Source: a phage | DNA: 64,000 nucleotides | Strand: one strand, 5' to 3' | Assembly: GCA_016658885.1 (NCBI GenBank) | Contig: GCA_016658885.1_4807.1 | In this document: positions 1 through 61,929 of the stretch, piece by piece | How the letters are laid out: every line of letters starts with the position of its first letter | Position numbering within the stretch: the stretch's first letter is position 1 | Position numbers and translations under genes: made by a program | The notes under the pieces: generated by a model | What the model was told of the DNA's origin: nothing | The model's input: the letters and a program-made list of their open reading frames with translations, nothing else | Databases searched by the model: none

Positions 1-168
1 ATCTTCCTCTTCGAGTTCCGTAAATTCGCTAAAATCGATAGGACTATGAAGCTCTTCGATAGTTGCATCTACGTTAAAGAGATAAACGTTTTTAAGTTTT
101 TCGCCAAATACGTTAGAGTTTTCGGAAGTTTCGACGCGAGCGGAACGGATAGCGGCTAAAGTAATCAT
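1..168 (-). CDS. hypothetical protein, 5' part only (gene runs off left edge)
   Basis: Open frame to position 1 on minus strand; ATG at 166-168 preceded by AGGAGA SD (ctaggagaatattATG); not in supplied ORF track because truncated. Confidence 0.45.
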   Translation of the reverse strand, partial: MITLAAIRSARVETSENSNVFGEKLKNVYLFNVDATIEELHSPIDFSEFTELEEED

Positions 169-220
169 AATATTCTCCTAGTTAGTCGGGAGGGTAGCGA
201 CCTATTCGCTACCTCATCCC

Positions 221-265
221 CTCTCGATATAAAACATTATAGTCTTAGTGTACGAAGAAGTAAAG
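221..265. repeat. 45-bp imperfect direct repeat, copy 1 (CTCTCGATATAAA...GTGTACGAAGAAGTAAAG)
   Basis: Matches 621-663 over about 38 of 45 positions; lies just upstream of the start of minus-strand gene 276..635. Confidence 0.5.
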
Positions 266-275
266 CACTTTTTCG

Positions 276-635
276 TTATTCTGCGATAAAATATTTATAA
301 GCTTTATCGCCTTCTACGTCGATATACTCGACGATAATTAACGCTTCGCCGCGAGGCGTAACCGTCTCGATAAGGGTAACGGCTTCGTCGTCGGTCTTCG
401 CGAAGCGGATGGCGCTACATTCGGCGTACTTCATATCATCGAAGGAAAGGCCGATGAAGGCGACCGCGCGGACCTTAATGGCGCTAGATTCTAGTTCCGC
501 GTTAACGGCGGCGATAAGAGAGCGAACGGTTAAGCGGTCTTCGTCGTAAGTAAGGATGGAAGAGATTAAAGTAGTCATAATAAAGCTCCCGATGCTAGTA
601 GAAGAAAGGGCCATCGCCCGTCTCGATATAAACAA
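276..635 (-). CDS. hypothetical protein
   Basis: 119-aa ORF; SD GGGAG then TTTATTATG start context shared with neighbouring genes. Confidence 0.5.
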   Translation of the reverse strand: MFISRRAMALSSTSIGSFIMTTLISSILTYDEDRLTVRSLIAAVNAELESSAIKVRAVAFIGLSFDDMKYAECSAIRFAKTDDEAVTLIETVTPRGEALIIVEYIDVEGDKAYKYFIAE

Positions 636-663
636 GTATACGCGAGTGTACGAAGAAGTAAAG
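621..663. repeat. 45-bp imperfect direct repeat, copy 2
   Basis: Second copy of the element at 221-265; followed by inverted copy of GTAAAGCACTTT at about 702-714. Confidence 0.5.
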
Positions 664-706
664 AAAAAAGATAAAATAATTTATCGCATTTTTATCGAAA
701 AAGTGC

Positions 707-734
707 TTTACTTTTTTCTACACTATATTATAAT
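707..734 (+). promoter_or_regulatory. candidate sigma70-like promoter (TTTACT-N16-TATAAT) for rightward genes 803..1824
   Basis: -10 TATAAT at 729-734, -35-like TTTACT at 707-712, about 70 bp upstream of RBS and ATG at 803. Confidence 0.35.
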
Positions 735-802
735 GTACTCATATCGGGACGGGATGAGTTAACGAATAGGTCGTTAACGCCTCTCCCAACTAGGAGTTTA
801 TT

Positions 803-1117
803 ATGGCTATCGTTACCCGCTTTACCCTCGAAAACGCAACCGCCGAAGTCCAGGGCGTTACGCTTACTTACGGCGAAATTCTCGCGAAATTCTCCGGCGT
901 TCGCTTAGGCGAAGAAATTAACGACGCGACGGTAATCGAGCAACTCGCTGCTTCTCGCTTAGAGCGCGACGAAAACGGATTCTTCGAAGTCGATGCGGAA
1001 TTAAATTTATGCGGTAAAACGGCGTTTATTAACGAGTTCGAACTCGCCGTTTTAGTTAATTACGATAGCAAAGCTTACGCCTTCGCCCTCGAATTAATCG
1101 AAGACGACGAAGAGTAA
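803..1117 (+). CDS. hypothetical protein
   Basis: 104-aa ORF; SD TAGGAG and start context TAGGAGTTTATTATGG identical to that of gene 1198; strong GAA/NNC codon bias, TCGA-rich. Confidence 0.6.
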   Translation: MAIVTRFTLENATAEVQGVTLTYGEILAKFSGVRLGEEINDATVIEQLAASRLERDENGFFEVDAELNLCGKTAFINEFELAVLVNYDSKAYAFALELIEDDEE

Positions 1118-1197
1118 GAGAGGATTTTTAGAGCGTCGTGCGCGGCGCTTTAATAAAATTCTTTCGCGCCTAGCGCCCTAACAAATAGGAGTTTATT

Positions 1198-1824
1198 ATG
1201 GTTAGCTTAAATCGCTTTTCTACTAGCGGCGACGTTATCGCAACTAAGACCGCCGACCTCGTTGCATTCTATAATGCAAATTCCGGCTCAAAACCGATTA
1301 AGAAGTTTGCGGACCGCCGGACCGCCGAGACTCGCGTAATCGCGTTAATCGAGTCCTTAAACGCGCTCGATGCGCCGTCCAACGAATCGCCCATCCCCGA
1401 CGCTAAGCCGCGCGAGGAAGTGTCCAGCGATGTAAAAACGCATAAGGCGCGTGCGGTCGTTAAAAAGGCTGAGCCTACCCAGGAAGAACTCGACGCGATG
1501 ACCGACGAAGAATATGAAGCCTTCGTTAAGAGCGGTTTAAACGATAGTGCAAATTGCGTAGTGCAAAATGGAACTCCTTCCCATCGCCGTTCGAATAGCG
1601 AAGGTATTGCAAAAAGCTGGGATAATAAGGAAGTGGCGCAAAAGCGTCTCACCCGTAACGGCGTTATGGTCGAGGGTGTAGGCGAGTTCAAATCGGTCCG
1701 CGTAGCGTTCGGCGCGCTGGGATTACCGGATAGCAAGCACATTCGCTTCCGCATGAAGCTTAAGGAAGCTGGGCGCTTGAACTTCGAGTTCGGCAACAAG
1801 TCCTACACCTTCCAGATTATCTAA
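1198..1824 (+). CDS. hypothetical protein
   Basis: 208-aa ORF; identical RBS/start context to 803; contains two 11-mer motif copies near 1544-1569. Confidence 0.6.
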   Translation: MVSLNRFSTSGDVIATKTADLVAFYNANSGSKPIKKFADRRTAETRVIALIESLNALDAPSNESPIPDAKPREEVSSDVKTHKARAVVKKAEPTQEELDAMTDEEYEAFVKSGLNDSANCVVQNGTPSHRRSNSEGIAKSWDNKEVAQKRLTRNGVMVEGVGEFKSVRVAFGALGLPDSKHIRFRMKLKEAGRLNFEFGNKSYTFQII

Positions 1825-1831
1825 TCGAATG

Positions 1832-1853
1832 GCGGCCCTTCGGGGTCGCTTTT
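1832..1853 (+). terminator. candidate rho-independent terminator (GC stem with UUCG tetraloop, then TTTT)
   Basis: gcggccc-ttcg-gggtcgc hairpin followed by tttt immediately after stop of gene 1198..1824. Confidence 0.45.
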
Positions 1854-1874
1854 CATAGTGCAAATTGGTGGCTT

Positions 1875-2138
1875 ATGAATACTCTCATTCTCATCGCTAC
1901 GTTGTCCATCGGAAGTGGTCGCACCTTATCCCTTTATGATCATAGTGCAAATTGCGCTTACCCAACGCGCGTTGCGGCAATAGTTAATAGTGCAAATCGA
2001 ATGCTATTCGAGACTTGTTGGCGGGTCGATAACGAGAAAGGTCGGGTAGTCTTAGGTTATAGTGCAAATCTGCTGGTGGAGTCGTTCGATTGGACGGTTG
2101 AAGGTCGTAAATTGTTACGGAAAGTGACTAAAAGATGA
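1875..2138 (+). CDS. doubtful ORF (87 aa) spanning three 11-mer copies
   Basis: ORF with GGTGG SD, but its length coincides with 11-mer copies lying in frame (HSAN, NSAN, YSAN); may be non-coding. Confidence 0.2.
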   Translation: MNTLILIATLSIGSGRTLSLYDHSANCAYPTRVAAIVNSANRMLFETCWRVDNEKGRVVLGYSANLLVESFDWTVEGRKLLRKVTKR

Positions 2139-2252
2139 CTTATAATAATACACTTTCTAACGCGTTTATGGTTGTAACCTTCCCCATCGTATTACCGATG
2201 GCCCTAGAAGTGGAGAAAATGTGTTCTAGGGCCGTTTTATAGTGCAAATTGG

Positions 2253-2741
2253 CTAGTGGCGGGAGAATTGCTCACCTTCTTTGGCCGCCTCTCCAAAATC
2301 CTTGTAGAAATCGTCCATAGAACGGCCCATTTTACTATTGCCGTTTTCATCAATCATCGTGATGCCGTAGATGATATTCAGTTCACGAATAGCATTAAGC
2401 TTGGCTGATGCCGCGACTTCTGGATCACGCACAAGCTTGACCAAATTGTGAATTGCACCTTTTACGCTCCATAAATCCTTGAGTGGCATTTCTTCCATAC
2501 GCTTTTTGAAGCGCATTTTGTAGTACGGATTGCGTTGTGCGCAAAGGATTCGCTGGCCAGTGTAGTTATCCGTTGCAACTTCCATTCCAAATACTAGTGC
2601 AAAAGCTGCGCGCATGTCATGGCCCTGAATAACAAGGTCAATGAACTCATCGAATAAAGCCTGATTGTGCTCTGCAAATCGCGGGTCTTCAAAGTCTTCA
2701 GGCATCGCTACATAATCTTGACTCATAGTGCAAAATCCCAT
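2253..2741 (-). CDS. hypothetical protein
   Basis: 162-aa ORF (alternative start at 2726, MSQDYV); no clear SD; overlaps motif copies at its 5' end. Confidence 0.45.
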   Translation of the reverse strand: MGFCTMSQDYVAMPEDFEDPRFAEHNQALFDEFIDLVIQGHDMRAAFALVFGMEVATDNYTGQRILCAQRNPYYKMRFKKRMEEMPLKDLWSVKGAIHNLVKLVRDPEVAASAKLNAIRELNIIYGITMIDENGNSKMGRSMDDFYKDFGEAAKEGEQFSRH

Positions 2742-2949
2742 AGTGCAAATTAATAGTGTGAATTATACAATGGATGGACATTATATTCAAGTGCAGATTG
2801 ATGTTCATTATGGCTATAAACGTACACAAATCATAGTGCTGAATGGATAACGGACCGTGGTGCGTGGTGTACTGTTTGATACGAATAAAAGAAATCCATC
2901 CCTTTCGCCGCTTGCTATGCAAATCAAAGACTTAGCCGCTGCTGGCTGG

Positions 2950-3320
2950 TTGAAGCGTATCATGACGTATCATCCGTATTGCCGCAAGTCTTTGTTTTTA
3001 CTTATATATTACGGATGATACGTTAAATATATAAATTAACATAAGTATGAGGATGTAGAAAAAAATTAATTTAAATTAATTCAAAATGGAGTTAATTAAT
3101 TTTTCAAATTATATATATAACGATGCCCAGTTTTATCCGTATCATCCGTAAGATTAATGTACAAGCCAGGCGCGGCAAGGGCTGTACACTGATACGGATA
3201 AAAAACCATGACGTATCATGACGTAAGGGTGTACCAATTTGGAAAGGATGAATCCAGGAACGGCGCGGCCTGTAGCCATGATACGCTTAATTTTTAACCG
3301 TATTTTAAGCGTATCAAATG
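2950..3320. promoter_or_regulatory. iteron-like hub A: tandem/inverted 9-bp repeats (ACGTATCAT / ATCCGTATC family) flanking an about 100-bp core of over 90 percent AT
   Basis: cgtatcatgacgtatcatccgta (2955-2978), tacggatgatacg (3010-3022), AT core 3025-3125 with AAATTAATTTAAA palindromes, atccgtatcatccgta (3133-3150), catgacgtatcatgacgta (3209-3227). Confidence 0.55.
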
Positions 3321-3557
3321 TGTTCAAACACCACGTTTCACGACACTAAAATTTCAATCCATAGATATAATCTAACAAACATCACGGACCAATAGACACG
3401 ACCTATGAAATATATTTCTAAATATTTCCGCACAATCAATAAATAAAACACAACCTCATAATCATTCCATCGCAAAACACGACCCAAACAACAAAAGGCC
3501 GCATAAAGCGACCAATTGCACACATTCCATTCTTCAAAACACACAAATCAATGTTCT

Positions 3558-4091
3558 TTATCCGCTGACCTTCCAGTCACCATTCCTTTTATCACGCTTC
3601 TTTAACTCCGTTTTAATGACATTATTATCCACAATAACTCCTAAACGGCGCAATTCACACATGACCTTGTGGCGATATTGTCGAAGCTTTTTGACGTCCA
3701 TTGTGCTCCTTGAATAAGATAATACCATAAAAATAATATCATCATTCATCTTGTAGCGCATACAAGTTTTATAATGCCTTTTGAAAATAGCATTAACGGC
3801 ATCTGTTTTCAGCAATTCATCCATTAATTCTTGATTCCCTTCACAGACGTTAATGACCCATTCATCCCTTGATTTTGCCGCTTTCAATCCCCTTAGAGTT
3901 AATAACTCATATAATGCCTTTCTGCACTTAGAGCAATCACCAATTGTCAAACTTGATTCCATTTCTTGAGCATCGGTCAACTCTGTATTGCCTTTGCTGA
4001 ATTTACCGCACAAGCTGATTTGCTCGCCGTCGTCAAAGTAGTGGGCAAGTTTTGAGTATCGCGGCTTGCCCCATCCTGCAACGTTACCCAT
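3558..4091 (-). CDS. hypothetical protein (Cys-rich)
   Basis: ATG at 4089-4091 with AAGGAGG SD; ATGA overlap with upstream gene; ORF track start at 4094 is GTG. Confidence 0.55.
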   Translation of the reverse strand: MGNVAGWGKPRYSKLAHYFDDGEQISLCGKFSKGNTELTDAQEMESSLTIGDCSKCRKALYELLTLRGLKAAKSRDEWVINVCEGNQELMDELLKTDAVNAIFKRHYKTCMRYKMNDDIIFMVLSYSRSTMDVKKLRQYRHKVMCELRRLGVIVDNNVIKTELKKRDKRNGDWKVSG

Positions 4092-4516
4092 CACCCCTCC
4101 TTAACGACCCGATAAGCAACAATCTTTGCACCAGTCGGGCTTGTGACTTTATCCCATGTCAAACTATCCGAAGGAACGGCCTCTTTTGATTTATAACCGT
4201 TGAGTAATTCAAACTCAACCATCTTCCCAGGCACCGGATTCTCTCCACCACGCCACACGGTCCACGCTTCATCCTGCTTTTCGCAAGCATCAACATCCAC
4301 GCCTATAGTGGAAACGACGTCATGTAACTGCTTAACGAGCGCCGACGCATCACGGACCTGTGAGCGTAATGCAACCAACTCGCGTTGCGCTTCGCTATAT
4401 TTCTCTTCCAGCGCGGCGTAGTCCTCATATTCAACGTAGCCGCCTTCATTATCCTTTACAACTTCGCAAGTGCAAGCGTGCTGCGTGCAATAATCAACAT
4501 CGTAACGTTGTATCAT
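4091..4516 (-). CDS. hypothetical protein with C-terminal NPVPGK...AYRVV domain shared with 5665..6171
   Basis: 141-aa ORF, GGAGA SD; C-terminal about 55 aa align with C-terminus of 5665..6171. Confidence 0.55.
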   Translation of the reverse strand: MIQRYDVDYCTQHACTCEVVKDNEGGYVEYEDYAALEEKYSEAQRELVALRSQVRDASALVKQLHDVVSTIGVDVDACEKQDEAWTVWRGGENPVPGKMVEFELLNGYKSKEAVPSDSLTWDKVTSPTGAKIVAYRVVKEG

Positions 4517-5007
4517 TCTAACTTCTCCAAAATTTCAATGGCAATCTGCGTTTGCTTCTCAAGCGCGAGACGCAACATGTCAATTTGCAAGTCACGATGG
4601 GCCAGTTCAGCGGCGATGTCTGACTTGCTGTAAAGTCCTTCATGAGTCATGGCATAGATGTGGCGCGTATAATAGCCGCCCTCGTCGAGTTGCTCGATGT
4701 CACGTTGCCCGACTGCATATTGGTTATCGGTCGATGGCGCTTGGTCCTGAATTTTGATTGCTGCCACTTCCTTTAATGAATCGCGTGATGCGGGTCTGTT
4801 CTTTTCAAGCATCTTCACTTGGTCGATGCGCTCGCACCAAACTGAACCACAGGCTTCATACAACCACTGGCCGCGCCGCTCTTCCCATACAGGTTTTCCC
4901 TCATACAACCAAATGCTGCCATTGGAATCGCGCGCAACGAATCGCGCACGAGCGTCTATTTCGTATTCTTTACCTTCAAAATTGATGCGCTGCGTTTTGT
5001 TAGTCAT
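4513..5007 (-). CDS. hypothetical protein
   Basis: 164-aa ORF, overlapping stop/start with neighbours. Confidence 0.5.
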   Translation of the reverse strand: MTNKTQRINFEGKEYEIDARARFVARDSNGSIWLYEGKPVWEERRGQWLYEACGSVWCERIDQVKMLEKNRPASRDSLKEVAAIKIQDQAPSTDNQYAVGQRDIEQLDEGGYYTRHIYAMTHEGLYSKSDIAAELAHRDLQIDMLRLALEKQTQIAIEILEKLE

Positions 5008-11336: not shown

Positions 11337-11984
11337 TTATCCTGTGGCCTGCATATTGCGTACATACTTCTGCTCTAATGAATAGATGAAGTCGGCGACC
11401 GTAAATCCCTTTGTGTGCCATTCATACATGGTGAAGCCTGTATTCAGGAAATAGCCGCGCACCTTGTCCATCGCTTCAGCTTCCTCCATGGAAGCCATCA
11501 GCGCGGCGACGTTGTCATAAGAAGGCACAAATCCCTTCTTGCGTAGCGCATTGCGCAAATCTTTAGTTCTGAATCCAATCTTGCAAGGGTCATCGCGCCC
11601 AGTGGATGATGCAACCTTCGGTAGCGCAAGGAACTCTTTAAGGAACATCGCAATGTTCAAGTCGCCTGCGTCATCAAGCTTCTGGATTCGGTTGCGACCG
11701 CGCCCCTTGAATTCACTTGCACGAGGGTGAGCGCCAAAACAGTGCGCCCCTTCCAGTTTAGGGTCGATGATCATTACATCTTTACCAATGCGCAGCTCTA
11801 CGTAGTAAAGATAAGACTCATCGACAAGCTTTGTGCGCTTGCAAGTGATTGAGTCCTTATCATAACCAAAGCCGCGCAACACGGTTGAAATCATCCGGTT
11901 CATTTCTTCGCCGTGAACATCACTTTCTTTGTTCAGTTCACCAAGATGTTGAAAGAATTTAGCGATGTTGATTGCTTTATTCAT
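11337..11984 (-). CDS. hypothetical protein
   Basis: 215-aa ORF; ATGA overlap with helicase gene stop. Confidence 0.55.
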   Translation of the reverse strand: MNKAINIAKFFQHLGELNKESDVHGEEMNRMISTVLRGFGYDKDSITCKRTKLVDESYLYYVELRIGKDVMIIDPKLEGAHCFGAHPRASEFKGRGRNRIQKLDDAGDLNIAMFLKEFLALPKVASSTGRDDPCKIGFRTKDLRNALRKKGFVPSYDNVAALMASMEEAEAMDKVRGYFLNTGFTMYEWHTKGFTVADFIYSLEQKYVRNMQATG

Positions 11985-13654
11985 CAGAATTCATCCTTAT
12001 CTCTTCCCAAAGAACGTTTACGCTCAATAACCTTCTTCAAGAATTCAATATCTTCAGGGTCAGACTCATCGCGGATAAGATACGCTAAGATGGTCATCAA
12101 GTCAGAAATGTATTCCCCTGCTTCATTCTTAATCAGCGGCGTAAAGTAACCGCGCTGGTTGCGATAGGTCGCAGGCTCAAAGCCAAGCTTTGACATGTGC
12201 GGCGCAAGGGTACGAGAGAAAGGCGACTTGCCGCACTTCGCTCTGAATCCCATAGCGATAGCACCACTGGTGATGTGCCAGCGTCCACTGTGATGTCGGT
12301 CATAAGGCGCGGTGATGACGACTTCAACAAGGTCGTTGTCAACCATCTCATCACGGATAACGCCGCGTGCACGTTCCATTTCGTTCTTGCTGAACTCAGT
12401 AAGCATGCGAGATGTTTCACCAACAAAAGCGTTATAGCCTGCTTCGCCGTGCTTCTCCATCCACGCAGCGCACTCAGCCATAAGCTGCCAAACATCTTCT
12501 TTCAAAGTGGAAAGGTCAGCTTGGAAGTCTTTAGACCAGTTCGGTTGCCCGTCCTTGTCAGCAAGTTGGCCAACAAAGATAGGGTAAACACGACGGTTGC
12601 CCGTATCGTCACGCTGCATGCCTGCGTATTCGTTGCCGTCCATGATCGCAATCCACTGGCGTGGTTTAACCTGCGTGTCTTCAAATTTGAAGTCCAGGTC
12701 ATCTTCCGTCTTAGTCAGGAATGCTTTCATGTTTTCGATGTCGGCCTTTTTAAAGCCTGTCATCTCGCCAACGTTCGCGATAATTGAGCGACCCGTAATA
12801 GCTCGCAAGAACGGGTTGAAGTTTTGCGCGGCCAAGTTCAACGGAATCGGTGTTGCGTGGCGGTCATTCATAATAGCTTCGCAAAGCAGCTTACTAAAAT
12901 AACTCTTCCCTGCGTTCTGGCCGCCGATTAGCGCAATGGAGATTGGCGCTTGACAGCCAGGGTTGGTCAGGCGGTTATAGAGCGATAGCCAAAAATACAC
13001 ACCGATTTGTCGGTTTAACTCTGTATCGAACGGTCGGAATAGCTCGATAAGGTATTTCTCAATGCGCGCAGCACCGTCCCATTCAGGCAGCTTCTTGTAG
13101 AAGAAGTCCATCAGGTCGTCGCGCTGATAACGCATGGCCCATTCCTTATAGGATTGAGCGACCTGCCGTGAGTTTGGGTTGGACAGGCCTGCTGCGTCGA
13201 CAGCGGCAACTATCTCTGTGACTTCCAACGTCCGGTCGGTGAATGTTTCGCCGCGATGGTCGACTAAGCGCCCACGAAAAGTATCTTTGTGAGGGAATGG
13301 AACAACGCCGCTTCCCTTATCAAACAACGCGTCGAAAACCGCATAACGGTTCATGTCACTCGTACGGTCCGCCTGAAGAACAAAATCATCTTTCGTCGGT
13401 TTATAATGAGGGAACTTGATTACCTGAAGTGAGGCGAGCAAACGTGCTCTTTCAACCAAGTCTTCTTCACCGTAGCATTCCATGCGCTCTGAATCTTTTT
13501 CAACGGCTTTATGTTGAAGGCTGATTTTAGCTCTGGTGCCTTGCTGCTCTGCTGCCTGCATTTCTTCCGAAACGCCTGCATCTTGAATTTCGTCAAAGAT
13601 TGCACCAAATTCATCACCTGTATCCTCTGGAAGATTGTCATTATTAATTGACAT
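11984..13654 (-). CDS. P-loop NTPase, putative primase-associated DNA helicase (VirE/D5-like)
   Basis: 556-aa ORF, AGGAGG SD; Walker A IALIGGQNAGKSYF; adjacent to primase gene; family assignment from motif only. Confidence 0.5.
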   Translation of the reverse strand: MSINNDNLPEDTGDEFGAIFDEIQDAGVSEEMQAAEQQGTRAKISLQHKAVEKDSERMECYGEEDLVERARLLASLQVIKFPHYKPTKDDFVLQADRTSDMNRYAVFDALFDKGSGVVPFPHKDTFRGRLVDHRGETFTDRTLEVTEIVAAVDAAGLSNPNSRQVAQSYKEWAMRYQRDDLMDFFYKKLPEWDGAARIEKYLIELFRPFDTELNRQIGVYFWLSLYNRLTNPGCQAPISIALIGGQNAGKSYFSKLLCEAIMNDRHATPIPLNLAAQNFNPFLRAITGRSIIANVGEMTGFKKADIENMKAFLTKTEDDLDFKFEDTQVKPRQWIAIMDGNEYAGMQRDDTGNRRVYPIFVGQLADKDGQPNWSKDFQADLSTLKEDVWQLMAECAAWMEKHGEAGYNAFVGETSRMLTEFSKNEMERARGVIRDEMVDNDLVEVVITAPYDRHHSGRWHITSGAIAMGFRAKCGKSPFSRTLAPHMSKLGFEPATYRNQRGYFTPLIKNEAGEYISDLMTILAYLIRDESDPEDIEFLKKVIERKRSLGRDKDEF

Positions 13655-14963: not shown

Positions 14964-16046
14964 CTATTTTATGCCACCTGCACGACGATTTATCATGTCA
15001 AGTTGATTCTCAATATAAGGCATTACGATTGCTTCAACAAAAGCGGTCCAACCTTTCTTGCCTTCCCCTTTCCGGTGACAGTCGTGGGCGCAACCGAACA
15101 CAAACTCATGTTCTGCACCAGGAATAGGGCCGCGAAAGTAAGCGCCATACGGGTCGCCGTTGGTGTGCTCTTCACCCCAAGGACATATTATGCGACACTT
15201 GCCTGACATGTTCTCGATGACGTCGCCATCAGACCCTTCACCCATCTTGTTGCGCGCAAGAATTTGCTGGGCTATTTTATACCAAACAGCATCATACTTG
15301 TATTCATCGACGTCAATTTGAATCTCACGCTTTTGCGGCATTACAACGTGAAAGCCAAATGCCTGGCAGATGTCTTCGATGGTGTAGCGCAAGGAGTAGT
15401 CTGCATGGACAAGTCGGCAGCGGAACGGGTCGCCGTTCTCATCGACATATTTATAGGGGCCGTCGTGAGTCACACGCTTATTGTTGATGCATCCAGGAAC
15501 ACGGCCCACGCGCGTTACGTCTTTAATCGTGTTGTCGCCGCCCTTCTTGAGTACCATGTTAACGAAAGACCCAAGGAACGCTTTGAACTGAATAAGATGG
15601 TCAATCGGTTCTTTAAAGAAGTACCAAAGCTGGTGGTTGTTCGGTGAAGTCTCGACGATGACAGTCGGCTTCAGTCGCTCAAAAAAGAATTCCAAATCTA
15701 AATCGCCTTTGGACCCTTTACCGTGACCGATGTCGTCGACCATCATCGCCATGCCGTGACCAAAGGCCGACTCTGTACGCCAGTATCGCATCTCACCCGT
15801 CTTTGGGTTGGGAGACTTACGCATTGAACTGATGCAAGCATAGCCGTTTTGGTGCTGCATGAGCGGCTTGCCCAACTTCCAAGGCTTAGGCCAGAAGCTG
15901 CTGTTAATCTTCTTGCCGCGCTCGTCAGTCTGCACCGTTGCTTCAGGAGCAAACACCGTCATGACGCGCTCATCTTCTGGGATGCCTCTCTGGAGTTCTG
16001 TTAAAAACTCTTCAATTATTTTTGCTTCTTCTCTTAAACTAGCCAT
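14964..16046 (-). CDS. putative DNA primase (archaeo-eukaryotic primase / PrimPol-like) with C-terminal Cys/His cluster
   Basis: 360 aa, AGGAAA SD; acidic MMVDDIG and SPNNHQLWY segments resemble AEP motifs I and II; CPWGEEH...FGCAHDCH zinc-site-like; first gene of leftward early operon. Confidence 0.45.
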   Translation of the reverse strand: MASLREEAKIIEEFLTELQRGIPEDERVMTVFAPEATVQTDERGKKINSSFWPKPWKLGKPLMQHQNGYACISSMRKSPNPKTGEMRYWRTESAFGHGMAMMVDDIGHGKGSKGDLDLEFFFERLKPTVIVETSPNNHQLWYFFKEPIDHLIQFKAFLGSFVNMVLKKGGDNTIKDVTRVGRVPGCINNKRVTHDGPYKYVDENGDPFRCRLVHADYSLRYTIEDICQAFGFHVVMPQKREIQIDVDEYKYDAVWYKIAQQILARNKMGEGSDGDVIENMSGKCRIICPWGEEHTNGDPYGAYFRGPIPGAEHEFVFGCAHDCHRKGEGKKGWTAFVEAIVMPYIENQLDMINRRAGGIK

Positions 16047-30280: not shown

Positions 30281-31141
30281 ATGTCTAAGAAAGAAACTAC
30301 CGAAGTTGCAGTGAAAAACACCCAGATGTCCGCTATGGCTGATTTTGTCGATATGACCGATTTTGGCGCTGGTTTTGAAGGTGCCGATGCCGACGCTTAT
30401 GCCATTCCTTTTATCGTCGTACTGCAAAAGATGTCTCCGATGGTCGACGAAGATGATCCAAAACACGTGCCTGGCGCAAAAGCTGGTATGTTGTACAACA
30501 CCGTTACTGGTGAATTGTATGACGGCAAGAAAGGTGTGCAGATCATCCCTTGCGCATTCAAACGCACCTTCATTCTTTGGGGCGGTCGCGAGTCCGACGA
30601 TAAAGGCTTTAAAGGTGAATTCACCAAAGAGCACGTTGATGCAGAAGTCGCGGCAGGCCGCGCTGTTGAGATCAACGGTAAGGTATTCGTGCCGGACGAA
30701 AACGGCAAGGTGCACGAGAAGAAATCTCCTTACTACGCAGATACACGTAACCACTTCGTGATTCTGTTGAACGAAGAAACTGGTGAATTTGGTAGTGCAA
30801 TGCTGTCTCTGACTTCTTCCATGATCAAGCCGTCTCGCATGCTGATGACCGCTCTGCAGCAGAAGAAAGTTCAGACTCCGCAGGGTCTGAAAACTCCGCC
30901 GACCTTTATGAACATCGTTCGCATGGGTACTGCGTCTCAGTCCAAAGACGGCAACACCTGGTCCGTCCTGAAGTTTGAGCTGGAAGGTCTGGTGCAGGAC
31001 AAAGGTCTGTATGAAGTCGCCAAGGCATTCCACAACGACGTAGTTGGCGGTAACGTTAACATTGACCGCAGCAAGCAGGAAGAAGCAAGCGGTGCCGCTG
31101 GTCCTGTCAATGAAACTCCGACCGACGCAGAAGAGTTTTAA
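30281..31141 (+). CDS. hypothetical protein (possibly DNA-binding/recombination-associated by context only)
   Basis: 286 aa; no motif recognised. Confidence 0.45.
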   Translation: MSKKETTEVAVKNTQMSAMADFVDMTDFGAGFEGADADAYAIPFIVVLQKMSPMVDEDDPKHVPGAKAGMLYNTVTGELYDGKKGVQIIPCAFKRTFILWGGRESDDKGFKGEFTKEHVDAEVAAGRAVEINGKVFVPDENGKVHEKKSPYYADTRNHFVILLNEETGEFGSAMLSLTSSMIKPSRMLMTALQQKKVQTPQGLKTPPTFMNIVRMGTASQSKDGNTWSVLKFELEGLVQDKGLYEVAKAFHNDVVGGNVNIDRSKQEEASGAAGPVNETPTDAEEF

Positions 31142-54408: not shown

Positions 54409-55821
54409 TTATTCCCCTTTCAACCAAGCTTCAAATGCTTCGTCAGTTGCTGCAGAATCCGCAGCGGCCTTTTGTTTTGCGACTACACGCTGTTTTTGAC
54501 CGTGTTCAACGCCGCGTAGATAATTATCCACCACGTCAAACTCAGCACCATCAACGCACTTCAAGCCTAACTTTTTAGCGCCATATTTCGCTACGGACTT
54601 GGAGTCCATAGTTGCATGATCAAAGGCACCAACAACTTTAGACAGGCGCTGGTAGAGGCTATTCTTACGAGCAGAATCAGCGTAGAAAGCAGCAACTGCT
54701 GAATCAGATGCCATTGAGTGTTCCCCTTTTGCTGGACCTGGCGACGCTTTCGCCGCTTTTGTCGGTTTGTCATCTTTTTCGACCGAAGCCCCCTTTACGT
54801 TGCTGTTTTGCAGGCCGCTAACCACATCTTCAGCTTTGTCGCAAGGTGATACATCTTCAGCCTTGACTTCAACTTCTTCGTCTTTGACTTCGGCTTCAAC
54901 TTCTTCTTCATCACCTACCGCGCCACCTTTCAGTTTTGCAATAAGTGCTTCGATTTGGCTGATCAGTTGCGGAAGCTCGCCGCCAGCGTGAGATTCAGTT
55001 TCAACTTCAAACTTCTCTTCACCTTCTGGAGTCTCTTCAGCTTCTGCTTTGACTTCTGGATCAACCATCACTTCTTCACGTTCTTCGGTTGAATCCTTCT
55101 CTTCTGCTTTCACTTCAACTTCGTCCTGATGAGCAGCTTCGGTGCTCTCTTCATTCAGAAATTGTTCGAGCGCAGGGATCAGTGATTTCAGCTGTTCAAC
55201 AGCATTATCACGCGCTTTACCTTTTAACGGTTTTGGCATGTCTAAATCCTCGTTGGATGGTGTTACAGTCGTCAAACAAAGATGGTCAAAGCAACGACCA
55301 TCCAGCACCCGTGCACCTGGTACTCGACCAACGTCCACGAGAGCAATGTGGTTGCCGCGAAGAGTTGTTTGTACCACTTCATACGGCTGCCCGTCAAACT
55401 CTCCAGACTGTATGATGAATTCACAGTCATAGCCCAAAGACAAGTCAACCTTTCCAGAATCGATGGCCTTCTTCAGACGACGGCTAAAAACTTTAAGGTC
55501 GCCGCGCATCCATGGCTTGTCATAATAAACATTGCCAGTTAGAACGCCATCAACGCCATACTCTTCGGGTGCTGTGTTATCCTCATCACCTTCGAATCCA
55601 GAAAGCATTTCGTGATTGTCGATGAAAGGGATATTTTTGAATGAATCTATCGCTTCGGGGTCTTTCACCGCTGACTCTGGGCGATAAACTTTTACGATGC
55701 GATTCGGATCACCATCAAGTCCAACCTGACCTGCAGAATAATCAAAAATGCCAAATGACGAAATGGGACAACCCACAATCGTCAAGAATCCATTTTTGTC
55801 AATTTCGCGTGCCGTTTGCAT
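54409..55821 (-). CDS. putative scaffolding protein (possible prohead protease-scaffold fusion)
   Basis: About 470 aa; globular N-domain then highly acidic Glu/Lys-rich coiled-coil C-region; first gene of late capsid operon. Confidence 0.45.
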   Translation of the reverse strand: MQTAREIDKNGFLTIVGCPISSFGIFDYSAGQVGLDGDPNRIVKVYRPESAVKDPEAIDSFKNIPFIDNHEMLSGFEGDEDNTAPEEYGVDGVLTGNVYYDKPWMRGDLKVFSRRLKKAIDSGKVDLSLGYDCEFIIQSGEFDGQPYEVVQTTLRGNHIALVDVGRVPGARVLDGRCFDHLCLTTVTPSNEDLDMPKPLKGKARDNAVEQLKSLIPALEQFLNEESTEAAHQDEVEVKAEEKDSTEEREEVMVDPEVKAEAEETPEGEEKFEVETESHAGGELPQLISQIEALIAKLKGGAVGDEEEVEAEVKDEEVEVKAEDVSPCDKAEDVVSGLQNSNVKGASVEKDDKPTKAAKASPGPAKGEHSMASDSAVAAFYADSARKNSLYQRLSKVVGAFDHATMDSKSVAKYGAKKLGLKCVDGAEFDVVDNYLRGVEHGQKQRVVAKQKAAADSAATDEAFEAWLKGE

Positions 55822-55929
55822 TCGCATCCACCCTCAAATAAGTATTGTGTATTATATCTAATGAAAAAAACTTAGGCAAACAATAATTATGGTTTGAATA
55901 TGTATAACAACCGATATAGCCGCGCCTTA

Positions 55930-56215
55930 ATTAGTGTGATACGGATGATACGGATAAAATGAGGCGTATTTTTATCCGTATCGGTGTATAAGCCGCGCTA
56001 TCACTGGTGTGCTACGGATGATACGGATGATACGGATACTTTTCATATATAAGAGTTTATAAAAAAAATAAAATTAAATTAGATATATAATTTTAAATTA
56101 ATTTATTTGAATTCCTATAAAGTATCGCGGCAACGCGTATCATCCGTATCATCCGTAAGATTCTTTTGAAAACAACTACTTACTTGATACGGATGATACG
56201 TCATTATACGCGTGA
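55930..56215. promoter_or_regulatory. iteron-like hub B: tandem/inverted 9-bp ACGGATGAT repeats flanking an about 85-bp AT-rich core
   Basis: gatacggatgatacggat (55937-55954), tacggatgatacggatgatacggatac (56013-56040), AT core 56041-56125, cgtatcatccgtatcatccgta (56136-56157), gatacggatgatacg (56187-56201). Confidence 0.55.
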
Positions 56216-56244
56216 AATCCTGCGGCAATCCATTGCCAGGCGAT

Positions 56245-56382
56245 TCAGTGAATATTAAATAGCACTCCTGCAACTAAAACGCCAATCAGCATTGAGTCAT
56301 AAACAGCCCATTTCCAAGAAAGCAAAGAGTTGCAATTAATATTTCGCACTTTAACATAACGTGACTGAATAATCTTTTGCAT
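56245..56382 (-). CDS. small predicted membrane protein (about 45 aa), not in ORF track
   Basis: AAAGAGGAAG SD then ATG at 56380-56382; C-terminal hydrophobic MLIGVLVAGVLF. Confidence 0.35.
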   Translation of the reverse strand: MQKIIQSRYVKVRNINCNSLLSWKWAVYDSMLIGVLVAGVLFNIH

Positions 56383-56454
56383 AACTTCCTCTTTAGTTCA
56401 TATCAAATTAATAATTGCACAGTTTAAATTGCGCTTATTTACAACTATCTTAAT

Positions 56455-60501: not shown

Positions 60502-61929
60502 TTAAAGGTTAGAGAAGAAGCCGGATGCTGCAACAATTGGTTTCATCAACGCCATGATTGCTGCGTCCGCTTTGTTAGGCGATTTTACTCCACGCTTTGC
60601 CATATCCTTTTTGGATTCAACTTTGAACTTACCAAGCACAGACGTGTCTTTGCGCGGCGCTGACATCTCAAAAAGAAATGTCTCAATTTCTTCCGCAGAC
60701 CAAGCAGGAATCCCAAGTTCTGGAATGCCGTCTGTGTCGATGGAAATCAGCTCATCAGTCGGGTATACGGCCTGCCCTGTTGCATACTCATATGTCTTCC
60801 TGAATCGTTCGGCAATCTCAGTCCATTTTTGCGCTTTTATGTTTGCGAAATGGTCTTTATTGAGTATTTCAACGTGTGGTAACTCAAGGAAGACGTCATC
60901 AGGATCATCAACAGCACCTTGCGCGTTGAACGCATTAAATTCGATTCTTGGGAATGTTGGATTTTCATGGATTGCATACTCATTAAGCTCATCAAATTTT
61001 GAACCAGCAAATGCACCAACACCGATGGCGTCATAGGTAATTGATGCGCCGAATGTTAATGCATCTTTCCAAACTCCGCTTGCGGACTTAAGCAATTCAT
61101 CTTCCAGACCTTCCCATGTCTTGATGCCGCGCAATACGTTGCCCGTGACAAATGCTGTGGCGTTTAAGTCGTCGCCGTCGTCTGCCACGTCAAAGCCTAT
61201 ACGGTTAGACCCTGACAAACTCCATCCCAGCGTAGGGTGTTTGTGGAGGTTAAGCGCGGCCTTGACGAATGCACGGTTGATTACCGACTTGTCGCCGCCT
61301 GTCTTCGGTACTCCGCCATAAACGTGTTCTGCCTTTTTCGGGTCGCGCTCATACATGCCAGCGATAACGTCCAGCATTGTTTGCGACAAGAATGGATTGT
61401 CCTGCCAGTTAATCTTCTTAACGATGGCATTTTTAGGCGGTCGCATAACAAAGTTCTGGTAGACGAAATCAGCCTCTTCATCAGGGTTAAATATGATCCA
61501 TATTTCTGACCCTTCCTTACGAATTGTCGGCTCAATAATGTCCCACTGCTCTTCAGTCAGCGCGTGCGCTTCTTCAAGCCAAAGAACGTCAACACCTTCT
61601 GTTGATTTGATTTCGTCAACGTTGCGTGCGATACCGTAAAATAAGAATTCAGATTTTGTTCTTTTATGTTCAATAGAGTTCTTTAATAAATTGAACTCAT
61701 CTTTAAAATCAGAAATCTCTATTTTGTCTTTTAATAGCGTATATACTGATTCAGAAATCTTGTTCTGGAATTGTCGAACGCAAAGGAATTTTAATTTGAA
61801 GTTTGCCGCCAAATAAATAGCAAAACCAGCGGCATCGTGCGATTTGGAAGATGCACGACCGCCGTATATGACTTTGTATCGCGCTTTCGTCTTCCAGACT
61901 TCTCTTAAAGCAGGATTCAACTGGTACAT
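60502..61929 (-). CDS. terL: terminase large subunit (PBSX/Terminase_3-like)
   Basis: 475 aa; N-terminal ATPase motif YKVIYGGRASSKSHD; nuclease-domain-sized C-terminus. Confidence 0.7.
   Translation of the reverse strand: MYQLNPALREVWKTKARYKVIYGGRASSKSHDAAGFAIYLAANFKLKFLCVRQFQNKISESVYTLLKDKIEISDFKDEFNLLKNSIEHKRTKSEFLFYGIARNVDEIKSTEGVDVLWLEEAHALTEEQWDIIEPTIRKEGSEIWIIFNPDEEADFVYQNFVMRPPKNAIVKKINWQDNPFLSQTMLDVIAGMYERDPKKAEHVYGGVPKTGGDKSVINRAFVKAALNLHKHPTLGWSLSGSNRIGFDVADDGDDLNATAFVTGNVLRGIKTWEGLEDELLKSASGVWKDALTFGASITYDAIGVGAFAGSKFDELNEYAIHENPTFPRIEFNAFNAQGAVDDPDDVFLELPHVEILNKDHFANIKAQKWTEIAERFRKTYEYATGQAVYPTDELISIDTDGIPELGIPAWSAEEIETFLFEMSAPRKDTSVLGKFKVESKKDMAKRGVKSPNKADAAIMALMKPIVAASGFFSNL

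Follow-up and report, generated by a model that had tools for sequence, protein, structure and literature searches.

The locus studied here raises the question of what a cluster of 9-bp repeats, set around an AT-rich core, does in a phage genome. It was first noticed at 2950-3320 of a stretch of 64,000 nucleotides (GenBank assembly GCA_016658885.1, contig GCA_016658885.1_4807.1; this whole stretch is called the window in what follows), and the initial annotation took it for a replication origin with initiator-binding iterons or, alternatively, for an operator cluster at an operon boundary. The window belongs to Wifcevirus, that is, to an E. coli myovirus of the WFC/ECML-117 group, with 94-99% identity to its relatives (TH35, WFC, WFH, ECML-117, Mansfield and Bas98-101, with genomes of ~68 kb), and it is reversed in orientation with respect to the WFC and Bas100 records. 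We refer to the element as hub A and to a related element at about 56 kb as hub B. Because the left end of the chromosome maps to the core of hub A and the first gene inward from this end encodes the small terminase (TerS), we read hub A as a packaging or terminus site, with a probability of about 0.5.

Anatomy of the two hubs

The unit CGTATCAT is found in 12 exact copies in the window against 1.98 expected, and all 12 lie inside the two hubs. The 13-mer CGTATCATCCGTA has 9 exact copies in the window, every one of them at 2966-3150 or 55940-56200, and when up to 2 mismatches are allowed there are 10 matches against 0.74 expected, a number reached in 0 of 100 shuffles. The repeated 9-bp units described initially, tandem and inverted around an AT core, are therefore real, with copy counts far above expectation and a restriction to the hubs. 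The copies stand in tandem at a spacing of 9 or 10 bp and have opposite orientation on either side of each AT core, and each hub is a near-palindrome in which mirror arrays flank a core of ~90-100 bp with 86-89% AT. Over ~280 bp the two hubs are paralogues of each other, for the most part inverted (78% for 2955-3022 against 56211-56145), and have their repeat units in common, which bears out the earlier claim of a related hub 53 kb away. The word AAATTAATTT has exactly 2 copies in the window, one in the core of each hub. The hubs are copies of one conserved DNA module, in which phased repeats are mirrored around an AT-rich core of ~100 bp.

The repeat field of hub A is broader than the interval first given and covers ~2875-3318. 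It is a near-palindromic field of CGTATC-type units, with inverted pairs I1-I12 whose dyad centres fall at ~3072-3120. From left to right it contains an outer-left array (2955-2980, plus strand; units at 2956, 2966 and 2975, with spacings of 10 and 9 bp), an inner-left array (3010-3023, minus strand), which makes a perfect, hairpin-capable 14-bp inverted repeat with 2965-2978 (folding z-score -3.9), the AT-rich core (3023-3130), and an inner-right array, TTTTATCCGTATCATCCGTAAGATT (3131-3155, plus strand). Beyond these are a small nested hairpin, GTACAAGCC...GGCTGTAC (3158-3188, plus strand), whose loop presents GGCGCGGCAA, and the right arm (3190-3226), made of one inverted unit with an A-run (3190-3208) and of the outer-right array CGTATCATGACGTA (3212-3225). 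The inner arms of hub A, at 2996-3022 and 3138-3164, are 81% complementary and lie 115 nt apart.

Hub B extends over 55918-56230. Its outer-left array with the inverted partner (55937-55982) gives a perfect 13-bp stem with a 10-nt loop, and is followed by an inner-left array of three units (56010-56037, minus strand), the AT-rich core (56038-56126), the inner-right array CGCGTATCATCCGTATCATCCGTAAGATT (56134-56162, plus strand) and an outer-right array (56185-56212, minus strand), which makes a perfect 16-bp inverted repeat with 56136-56151 (folding z-score -6.7). In this hub the inner arms (56013-56034 and 56136-56157) match each other perfectly as an inverted repeat of 22 nt, with 101 nt between them. 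The hub lies within the 417 bp that separate the prohead protease gene (54409-55827, minus strand) from a 45-aa gene (56245-56382, minus strand), in the head-gene cluster, with the portal and MuF genes on one side and the protease gene on the other.

The cores were initially said to be over 90% AT. This slightly overstates hub A, with 86% over 3023-3124 and again 86% in its best 80-nt window, but holds for the best 80 nt of hub B (91%), of which the core as a whole has 89%. The two hubs are the top two AT-rich places of the window. Each of the four arms is an inverted pair of an outer and an inner array that could fold as a 13-22-bp stem if single-stranded, and the folding z-scores of the four arms run from -2.8 to -6.7. 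Intrinsic terminators were ruled out for the arms, the hairpins having no T-runs, and searches of the whole window against Rfam (at gathering score) and for tRNAs gave no match.

The chromosome end and the small terminase gene

Five independently deposited relatives (WFC, WFH, Ro157lw, SP13 and Mansfield) start at one and the same nucleotide, which corresponds to the boundary between 3087 and 3088 of the window (feature at 3078-3099; ...ttcaaaat/ggagttaatt..., where the slash marks the end). This position is in the middle of the core, near the dyad centre of hub A; in the WFC record, which is linear with 72,472 bp and a terminal repeat, position 1 falls between the two inner arrays of the hub. 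For WFC, WFH, Ro157lw and SP13 both ends were compared, and all 4 records begin at ...ttaattaactcc/attttRaa... and have perfectly identical terminal copies, of 3784, 3701, 3533 and 3899 bp respectively. The Mansfield record gives a repeat_region at 1..3673, predicted by PhageTerm, and a terminal repeat of about 3.7 kb was reported by Korf 2019; PhageTerm and coverage statements on the ends are found in PMC6753283 and PMC6563267. All 5 records thus agree at the left end, and 4 of the 5 at the right end (...catgggtcttt), that of WFC lying 85 nt further on. As the end is at 3087/3088, positions 1-3087 of the window belong to the direct terminal repeat of 3.5-3.9 kb, of which the window holds one copy only; the right boundary of this repeat would be ~450-800 bp beyond the left edge of the window. 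The outer-left array of hub A is inside the terminal repeat and the inner-right array is outside it.

The sequence at the end is itself conserved. The motif aaaatggagttaatt is invariant in all hub A copies, and 15 nt around the cut do not vary in seven aligned copies in which the surrounding core is variable. The word GGAGTTAATTAA, at 3088, is unique in the window. A headful origin of the terminal redundancy was rejected, and we regard the ends as specified by sequence instead of being measured by headful, because the right end is common to four of the five records and the length of the repeat does not fall as the unique genome length rises. An artefact of sequencing through AT-rich DNA is also an unlikely source of the end, since no end is reported from hub B, the more AT-rich of the two, and the five records agree to the nucleotide. 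Very probably, then, the chromosome end and the terminase cut are located in hub A. A CGTATC hub was looked for at the right boundary of the terminal repeat and is absent there. Just inside this boundary, at 3370-3700 of WFC (outside the window), we observed other direct repeats (atcgcgtaagtcgttgttttata, aatcattagcYttcgaat and tgtaacg, two copies of each) and no CGTATC unit.

The TerS gene (2253-2741, minus strand) starts ~350 nt from the chromosome end and is the first gene inward from it. Its product matches the small terminase of phage E217 (PDB 7UXE, E=6.1e-34), and its homologue in Mansfield is annotated as terminase small subunit, while the sole match in the Pfam and PHROG searches was the uncharacterised phrog_4783. 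The gene for the large terminase (TerL; TIGR01547, E=1.2e-39, and Bas100 annotation) is at 60502-61929 on the minus strand, on the 15.7-kb arc between hub B and hub A. Measured within the window the two terminase genes are ~57 kb apart, against ~10 kb when the distance is taken across the genome end; a review gives a similar separation, ~58 kb, for TerS and TerL of E217 (PMC9611059). In this clade the TerS gene lies beside the chromosome end and not beside TerL, which agrees with where pac sites are usually placed with respect to TerS. A pac or cos site is expected in or next to the TerS gene, as found here and also in Pbunavirus, Myosmarvirus and PCSE1, and to contain the mature chromosome end, which hub A does according to the deposited records of the five relatives. 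As to the expectation of one functional site per genome, the module of repeats and AT core occurs twice and the cut motif GGAGTTAATTAA once. It may be noted that the end position and the TerS annotation are already known from individual GenBank records, and that TerS would reach the cell with the leading DNA, provided that entry begins with the left end.

In the mechanism that we infer from this arrangement, a phage-specific DNA-binding protein would occupy the arrays on both arms, the first choice being a decameric TerS and the alternative a VapE-like helicase encoded by the phage. The bound arrays would bend or wrap the flexible AT core and so present the conserved AAAAT/GGAGTTAATT to the large terminase, whose cut at this sequence would start packaging. 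The core of hub B is without the GGAGTTAATT motif; hub B would thus offer the same binding scaffold without the cut sequence, and would be bound and left uncut. The phasing of 9-10 bp would place successive sites on one face of the helix, which suits wrapping around a ring-shaped TerS. Judging from the sequences, we consider binding of the repeats by TerS to have a little less than an even chance. The TerS of E217 is a decamer with no appreciable DNA binding in vitro (review PMC9611059). Among the small genes flanking the two hubs, neither Pfam nor PHROG brought out a DNA-binding candidate.

Repeats are also known to flank the cleavage region in the pac site of P1 and in the pacL-pacC-pacR region of SPP1. 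As in these, hub A has short repeats on both sides of the cleavage region, is beside the TerS gene and is the place where a fixed end is made. It differs from them by nested inverted arrays phased at 9-10 bp, by a ~100-bp core of 86-89% AT and by an uncut paralogue 53 kb away; moreover, the product is a sequence-defined direct terminal repeat of 3.5-3.9 kb and not a headful series, and TerS binding is putative in Wifcevirus. The concatemer junction of T7 (phiOL/phiOR), T5 and SPO1 resemble the present case in that sequence-specific ends bound a direct terminal repeat with early genes, and origin-like and packaging signals are close to each other near the ends. The repeat is, however, 160 bp in T7 and 10-13 kb in T5 and SPO1, Wifcevirus has no phage RNA polymerase, and its right boundary is without a hub. 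A likeness to the 'synapsis' by T4 gp16 may also be drawn, as two homologous small-terminase targets (genes 16 and 19) flank the large terminase gene of T4, and the Wifcevirus hubs bracket TerS, TerL, portal and MuF on the 15.7-kb arc. This analogy is speculative, the T4 sites being short coding-sequence homologies without a fixed cut.

Recurrence of the layout and candidates for the protein that would read it

Hub A is kept in all 6 Wifcevirus relatives examined and hub B in 5, at 97-99%, so the repeats, which might have been absent from related genomes, are in fact maintained there, and the layout recurs in three other lineages. An exact-motif scan of IMG/VR found clustered copies in Wifcevirus genomes only, the remaining hits being single chance matches. 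Distant relatives have a non-coding gap of 370-516 bp between the MuF or small genes and the prohead protease gene. In the Serratia phage Spe5P4 (Myosmarvirus) this gap holds an AT core with mirror copies of TACTTTTC units on either side, and a matching half-hub is found ~300 bp upstream of the TerS homologue. The record of Pbunavirus Ab27 was opened at a 'single fixed termination' of reads; on joining the end of this record to its start, a hub with AATTWCC/GGTAATTT units is rebuilt, the arms of which are 79-83% identical to the gap upstream of the Ab27 protease gene, and TerS starts 600 nt inward. The Pbunavirus hub arms also have a hairpin (AGCCT-CGCGGCAGT-AGGCT) arranged like that at 3158-3188 of hub A. 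The same pair of hubs, next to TerS and to the protease gene, is present in the Salmonella phage PCSE1, whose TerS is 30% identical, where the units are of a fourth kind, GCCGTTATAT / AATATCGGC. One layout is thus shared by four lineages whose four repeat sequences are unrelated, and each phage uses one repeat at both of its hubs. A layout that stays while the repeats change by lineage points to a sequence-specific binding protein that co-evolves with its sites. As a side observation, the syntenic gap before the protease gene in the Xanthomonas phage XcP1 (2130-2501 of locus L104) yields no more than a CTGATGTAA pair and a GC-rich hairpin. An AT core with arrays is not obvious there, and Carpasinavirus may lack the module or carry it in an unrecognisable form.

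A role of the arms as DNA structure was considered, in which they would be hairpins or cruciforms and not protein sites, serving for example as primers when the terminal repeat is duplicated (a proposal made for the processing of T7 concatemers) or as hot spots of recombination. Perfect inverted repeats of 13-22 bp are present in every arm, and the inverted pairing is retained in the other genera despite the changed sequence. There is also a mosaic breakpoint to the right of hub A (~3155-3566), where about half of the Wifcevirus relatives lose similarity just right of the inner-right array (~3154); others lose nucleotide similarity at ~3561. The ECML-117-type phages have an arm like that of hub B in place of the right arm of hub A, which indicates exchange between the two hub copies, and from these sequence comparisons we read the breakpoint as putative recombination at or between the hubs. 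Yet a packaging cut leaves a double-strand end, at which recombination is to be expected as a by-product, the loops of 31-45 nt and the tandem phasing of 9-10 bp fit protein arrays better, and hub B has no terminal repeat to duplicate, so we consider this role very improbable.

The origin reading deserves more weight, though we find it doubtful on balance. Under it the repeats would be iterons for the VapE-like helicase and the two hubs would be two origins, at which the helicase, loaded as two opposed rings, opens the AT-rich core by melting and the RepB-type primase makes use of the arms that can form hairpins; the terminase cut in the core of hub A would be a second, superimposed function. 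The part of the initial annotation that stands is the anatomy, as multiple phased repeats do adjoin an AT-rich unwinding element as in iteron-type origins, and a candidate initiator is encoded. The candidate is the VapE-like helicase (11984-13654, minus strand; Pfam PF05272, E=3.7e-28; PDB 7PDS, E=3.9e-11), of a family that we take to include the SaPI Rep initiator helicases, and it is accompanied by the RepB-type DNA primase (14964-16046, minus strand; Pfam PF16793, E=4.5e-36). The C-terminal ~110 aa of the helicase are 10-43% identical between genera against 50-76% for its core, as expected of a specificity domain and compatible with specificity for the repeats. Retention of the AT core in an uncut hub B would also be explained, and the top rank of the hubs in AT content and the stem-loops open to all four single-stranded arms agree with origins. 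What counts against the reading is that the one mapped property of hub A, the end of the packaged chromosome beside TerS, belongs to packaging.

The comparison with known origins is likewise divided. From general knowledge, SaPI origins have two sets of short, lineage-specific repeats around an AT stretch of ~80-100 bp and go with a VapE/D5-type helicase, P4 needs two distant repeat clusters (ori and crr), and SPP1 has, in oriL and oriR, two related initiator-binding hubs tens of kb apart, one of them among late genes. In all these respects the layout is alike. Unlike in SaPI and P4, the Wifcevirus hubs are not beside the helicase gene, one of them is the chromosome end, and the helicase, in which no DNA-binding domain was identified, has a putative one proposed from its variability; and while the SPP1 origins are separate from its pac site, hub A coincides with the packaging cut. 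The origins of SaPI and lambda and oriL of SPP1 lie in or beside the initiator gene, with SPP1 oriR and P4 crr as exceptions to this rule, but neither Wifcevirus hub adjoins the helicase or the primase gene, the hubs being 9 kb and 42 kb from the helicase gene. GC skew tracks gene orientation in the window and gives no origin signal, and in the paper on Pbunavirus Banzai the skew minima are in the region of the replication genes. Binding of the repeats by the VapE-like helicase, as at an origin, is accordingly possible, with odds clearly on the lower side.

Returning to hub A as the packaging site, several points weigh against it. Hub B carries every hub feature and yet no end maps there (none of the listed Wifcevirus records starts at it), so packaging alone does not account for the module. 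Retention of the ~100-bp AT core in the uncut hub suggests an independent role for melting or bending, more in keeping with an origin. The termini were taken from deposited records and PhageTerm or coverage analyses and not from read data of our own. The N-terminal part of TerS is its less conserved part between genera, so the attempt to tell TerS from the helicase as the binder by a variable region failed; as both proteins have one, variability does not choose between them, and the two variable regions fit the change of repeats equally well. Lastly, the ends of Pbunavirus are disputed in the literature between defined ends, a single fixed end and circular permutation. A pac site of the hub A type may reconcile these reports, as a headful series initiated at pac would yield such a mix. 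Hub B itself could serve terminase as a second site of loading or pairing, could control the head-gene promoter next to it, or could be an origin of replication.

The two functions may also be combined, with modules for both origin and packaging across the Pbunavirus/Wifcevirus/Myosmarvirus clade. The helicase, loading itself, would read the lineage-specific repeats through its variable C-terminus and open the AT core at both hubs, and the terminase would cut the opened or bent structure of hub A. The frequent word (G/T)CGCGGC, described below and conserved across the genera as is the primase, would be what the RepB-type primase, or some other factor of replication or packaging, recognises. 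We regard this combination as unlikely.

In the literature searched we found no description of the architecture of repeats and AT core, of its coincidence with the chromosome end, of the paralogue in the head module or of the conservation across genera with changed repeats, and the papers on vB_Eco4M-7 make no mention of hubs or ends. Pbunavirus and Wifcevirus phages are under development for therapy and diagnostics and are now rebuilt synthetically, with packaging signal and origin undefined. With hub A, next to the 'orphan' small terminase gene, the analysis puts forward a concrete candidate for the pac site, and with hub B a second conserved non-coding element, which genome redesign should leave undisturbed. 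The natural repeat sequences, at least 4 in one fixed layout, are a ready-made specificity-swap set for identifying the binding protein.

Promoters, gene order and other repeated words

Control of transcription would be a different use of the hubs, in which the arrays bind a phage regulator that switches sigma70-like promoters (those of TerS and of the protease, scaffold and capsid genes) or insulates operons. Sigma70-like promoters close to consensus do lie 150-300 bp downstream of both hubs, on the same strand. Two overlapping ones are upstream of TerS (2762-2807, minus strand; TGAACA-16-TATAAT and TTGAAT-17-TATAAT, by consensus match only) and one is directly upstream of the prohead protease gene (55851-55879, minus strand; TTGCCT-17-TATAAT), where Pbunavirus and Myosmarvirus have a similar promoter, and Pbunavirus 14-1 has a promoter class that seemingly needs a phage factor. 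However, these promoter sites are outside the repeat arrays, which overlap neither -35 nor -10 elements. A near-palindrome of ~280 bp with a 100-bp AT core far exceeds known operators, TerS and the head genes are expected to need different timing, no regulator gene was found among the small genes around the hubs (Pfam and PHROG), and the chromosome end at the dyad centre is left unexplained. Promoters inside the cores were rejected, as a simple consensus scan found no sigma70-like site in either AT core; a weak match (9 of 12) at 56018-56046 overlaps the inner-left array of hub B. The operator cluster offered initially as an alternative is therefore weakly supported at best, and we think control of transcription improbable.

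A (G/T)CGCGGC word is found 20-40 nt upstream of the -35 element of the protease promoter in Wifcevirus, Myosmarvirus and Pbunavirus (55851-55930 of the window; 2390-2470 of locus L103 and 2395-2465 of locus L105). GCGCGGC is the most over-represented heptamer of the window: it occurs 66 times, where base composition predicts 4.4 copies and an order-2 Markov model 13.6. The copies are distributed at ~1 per kb within and between genes (27 on the plus and 39 on the minus strand; for example at 3170, 3263, 55919 and 55992). The same core ranks top or second in relatives (GCGCGGC with 58 copies against 22.5 expected in Spe5P4, TCGCGGC with 91 against 32.6 in Ab27). Copies of (G/T)CGCGGC cluster in the hub arms of all genera, and the word is in the small hairpin loop of the right arm of hub A and of the Pbunavirus hub arms. 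Genome-wide, the GCGCGGC copies are not in hairpin loops and show no strand polarity around the hubs.

By the annotations of Bas100 and Mansfield, the structural genes are on the minus strand from ~34 to 62 kb, and the replication genes on the plus strand from 16 to 34 kb; the minus strand between 3 and 16 kb holds the primase, the helicase and many small genes. Near hub B, the window lacks a ~920-bp 'head fibre / tail fiber' gene (Bas100_0006) that the relatives retrieved carry between the 45-aa and the MuF-like genes; 54 bp (56401-56454) stand in for positions 4001-4920 of the Bas100 locus, and this gap is seen in 25 of the 25 listed among 30 matching records.

Another repeated family is TTGCACTA(T), usually in the form aaTTTGCACTAT. 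It has 10 copies at 1545-2741, all within ~1.5 kb of the left end and in one orientation (minus-strand sense), two of them just ahead of the TerS start codon, one within TerS and one directly behind it, and the other six antisense to the genes that follow. One further copy in the window is at 30793, and WFC keeps the family, with 9 copies at 338-1535. The family may mark early promoters, or it may be a polar signal for packaging or injection.

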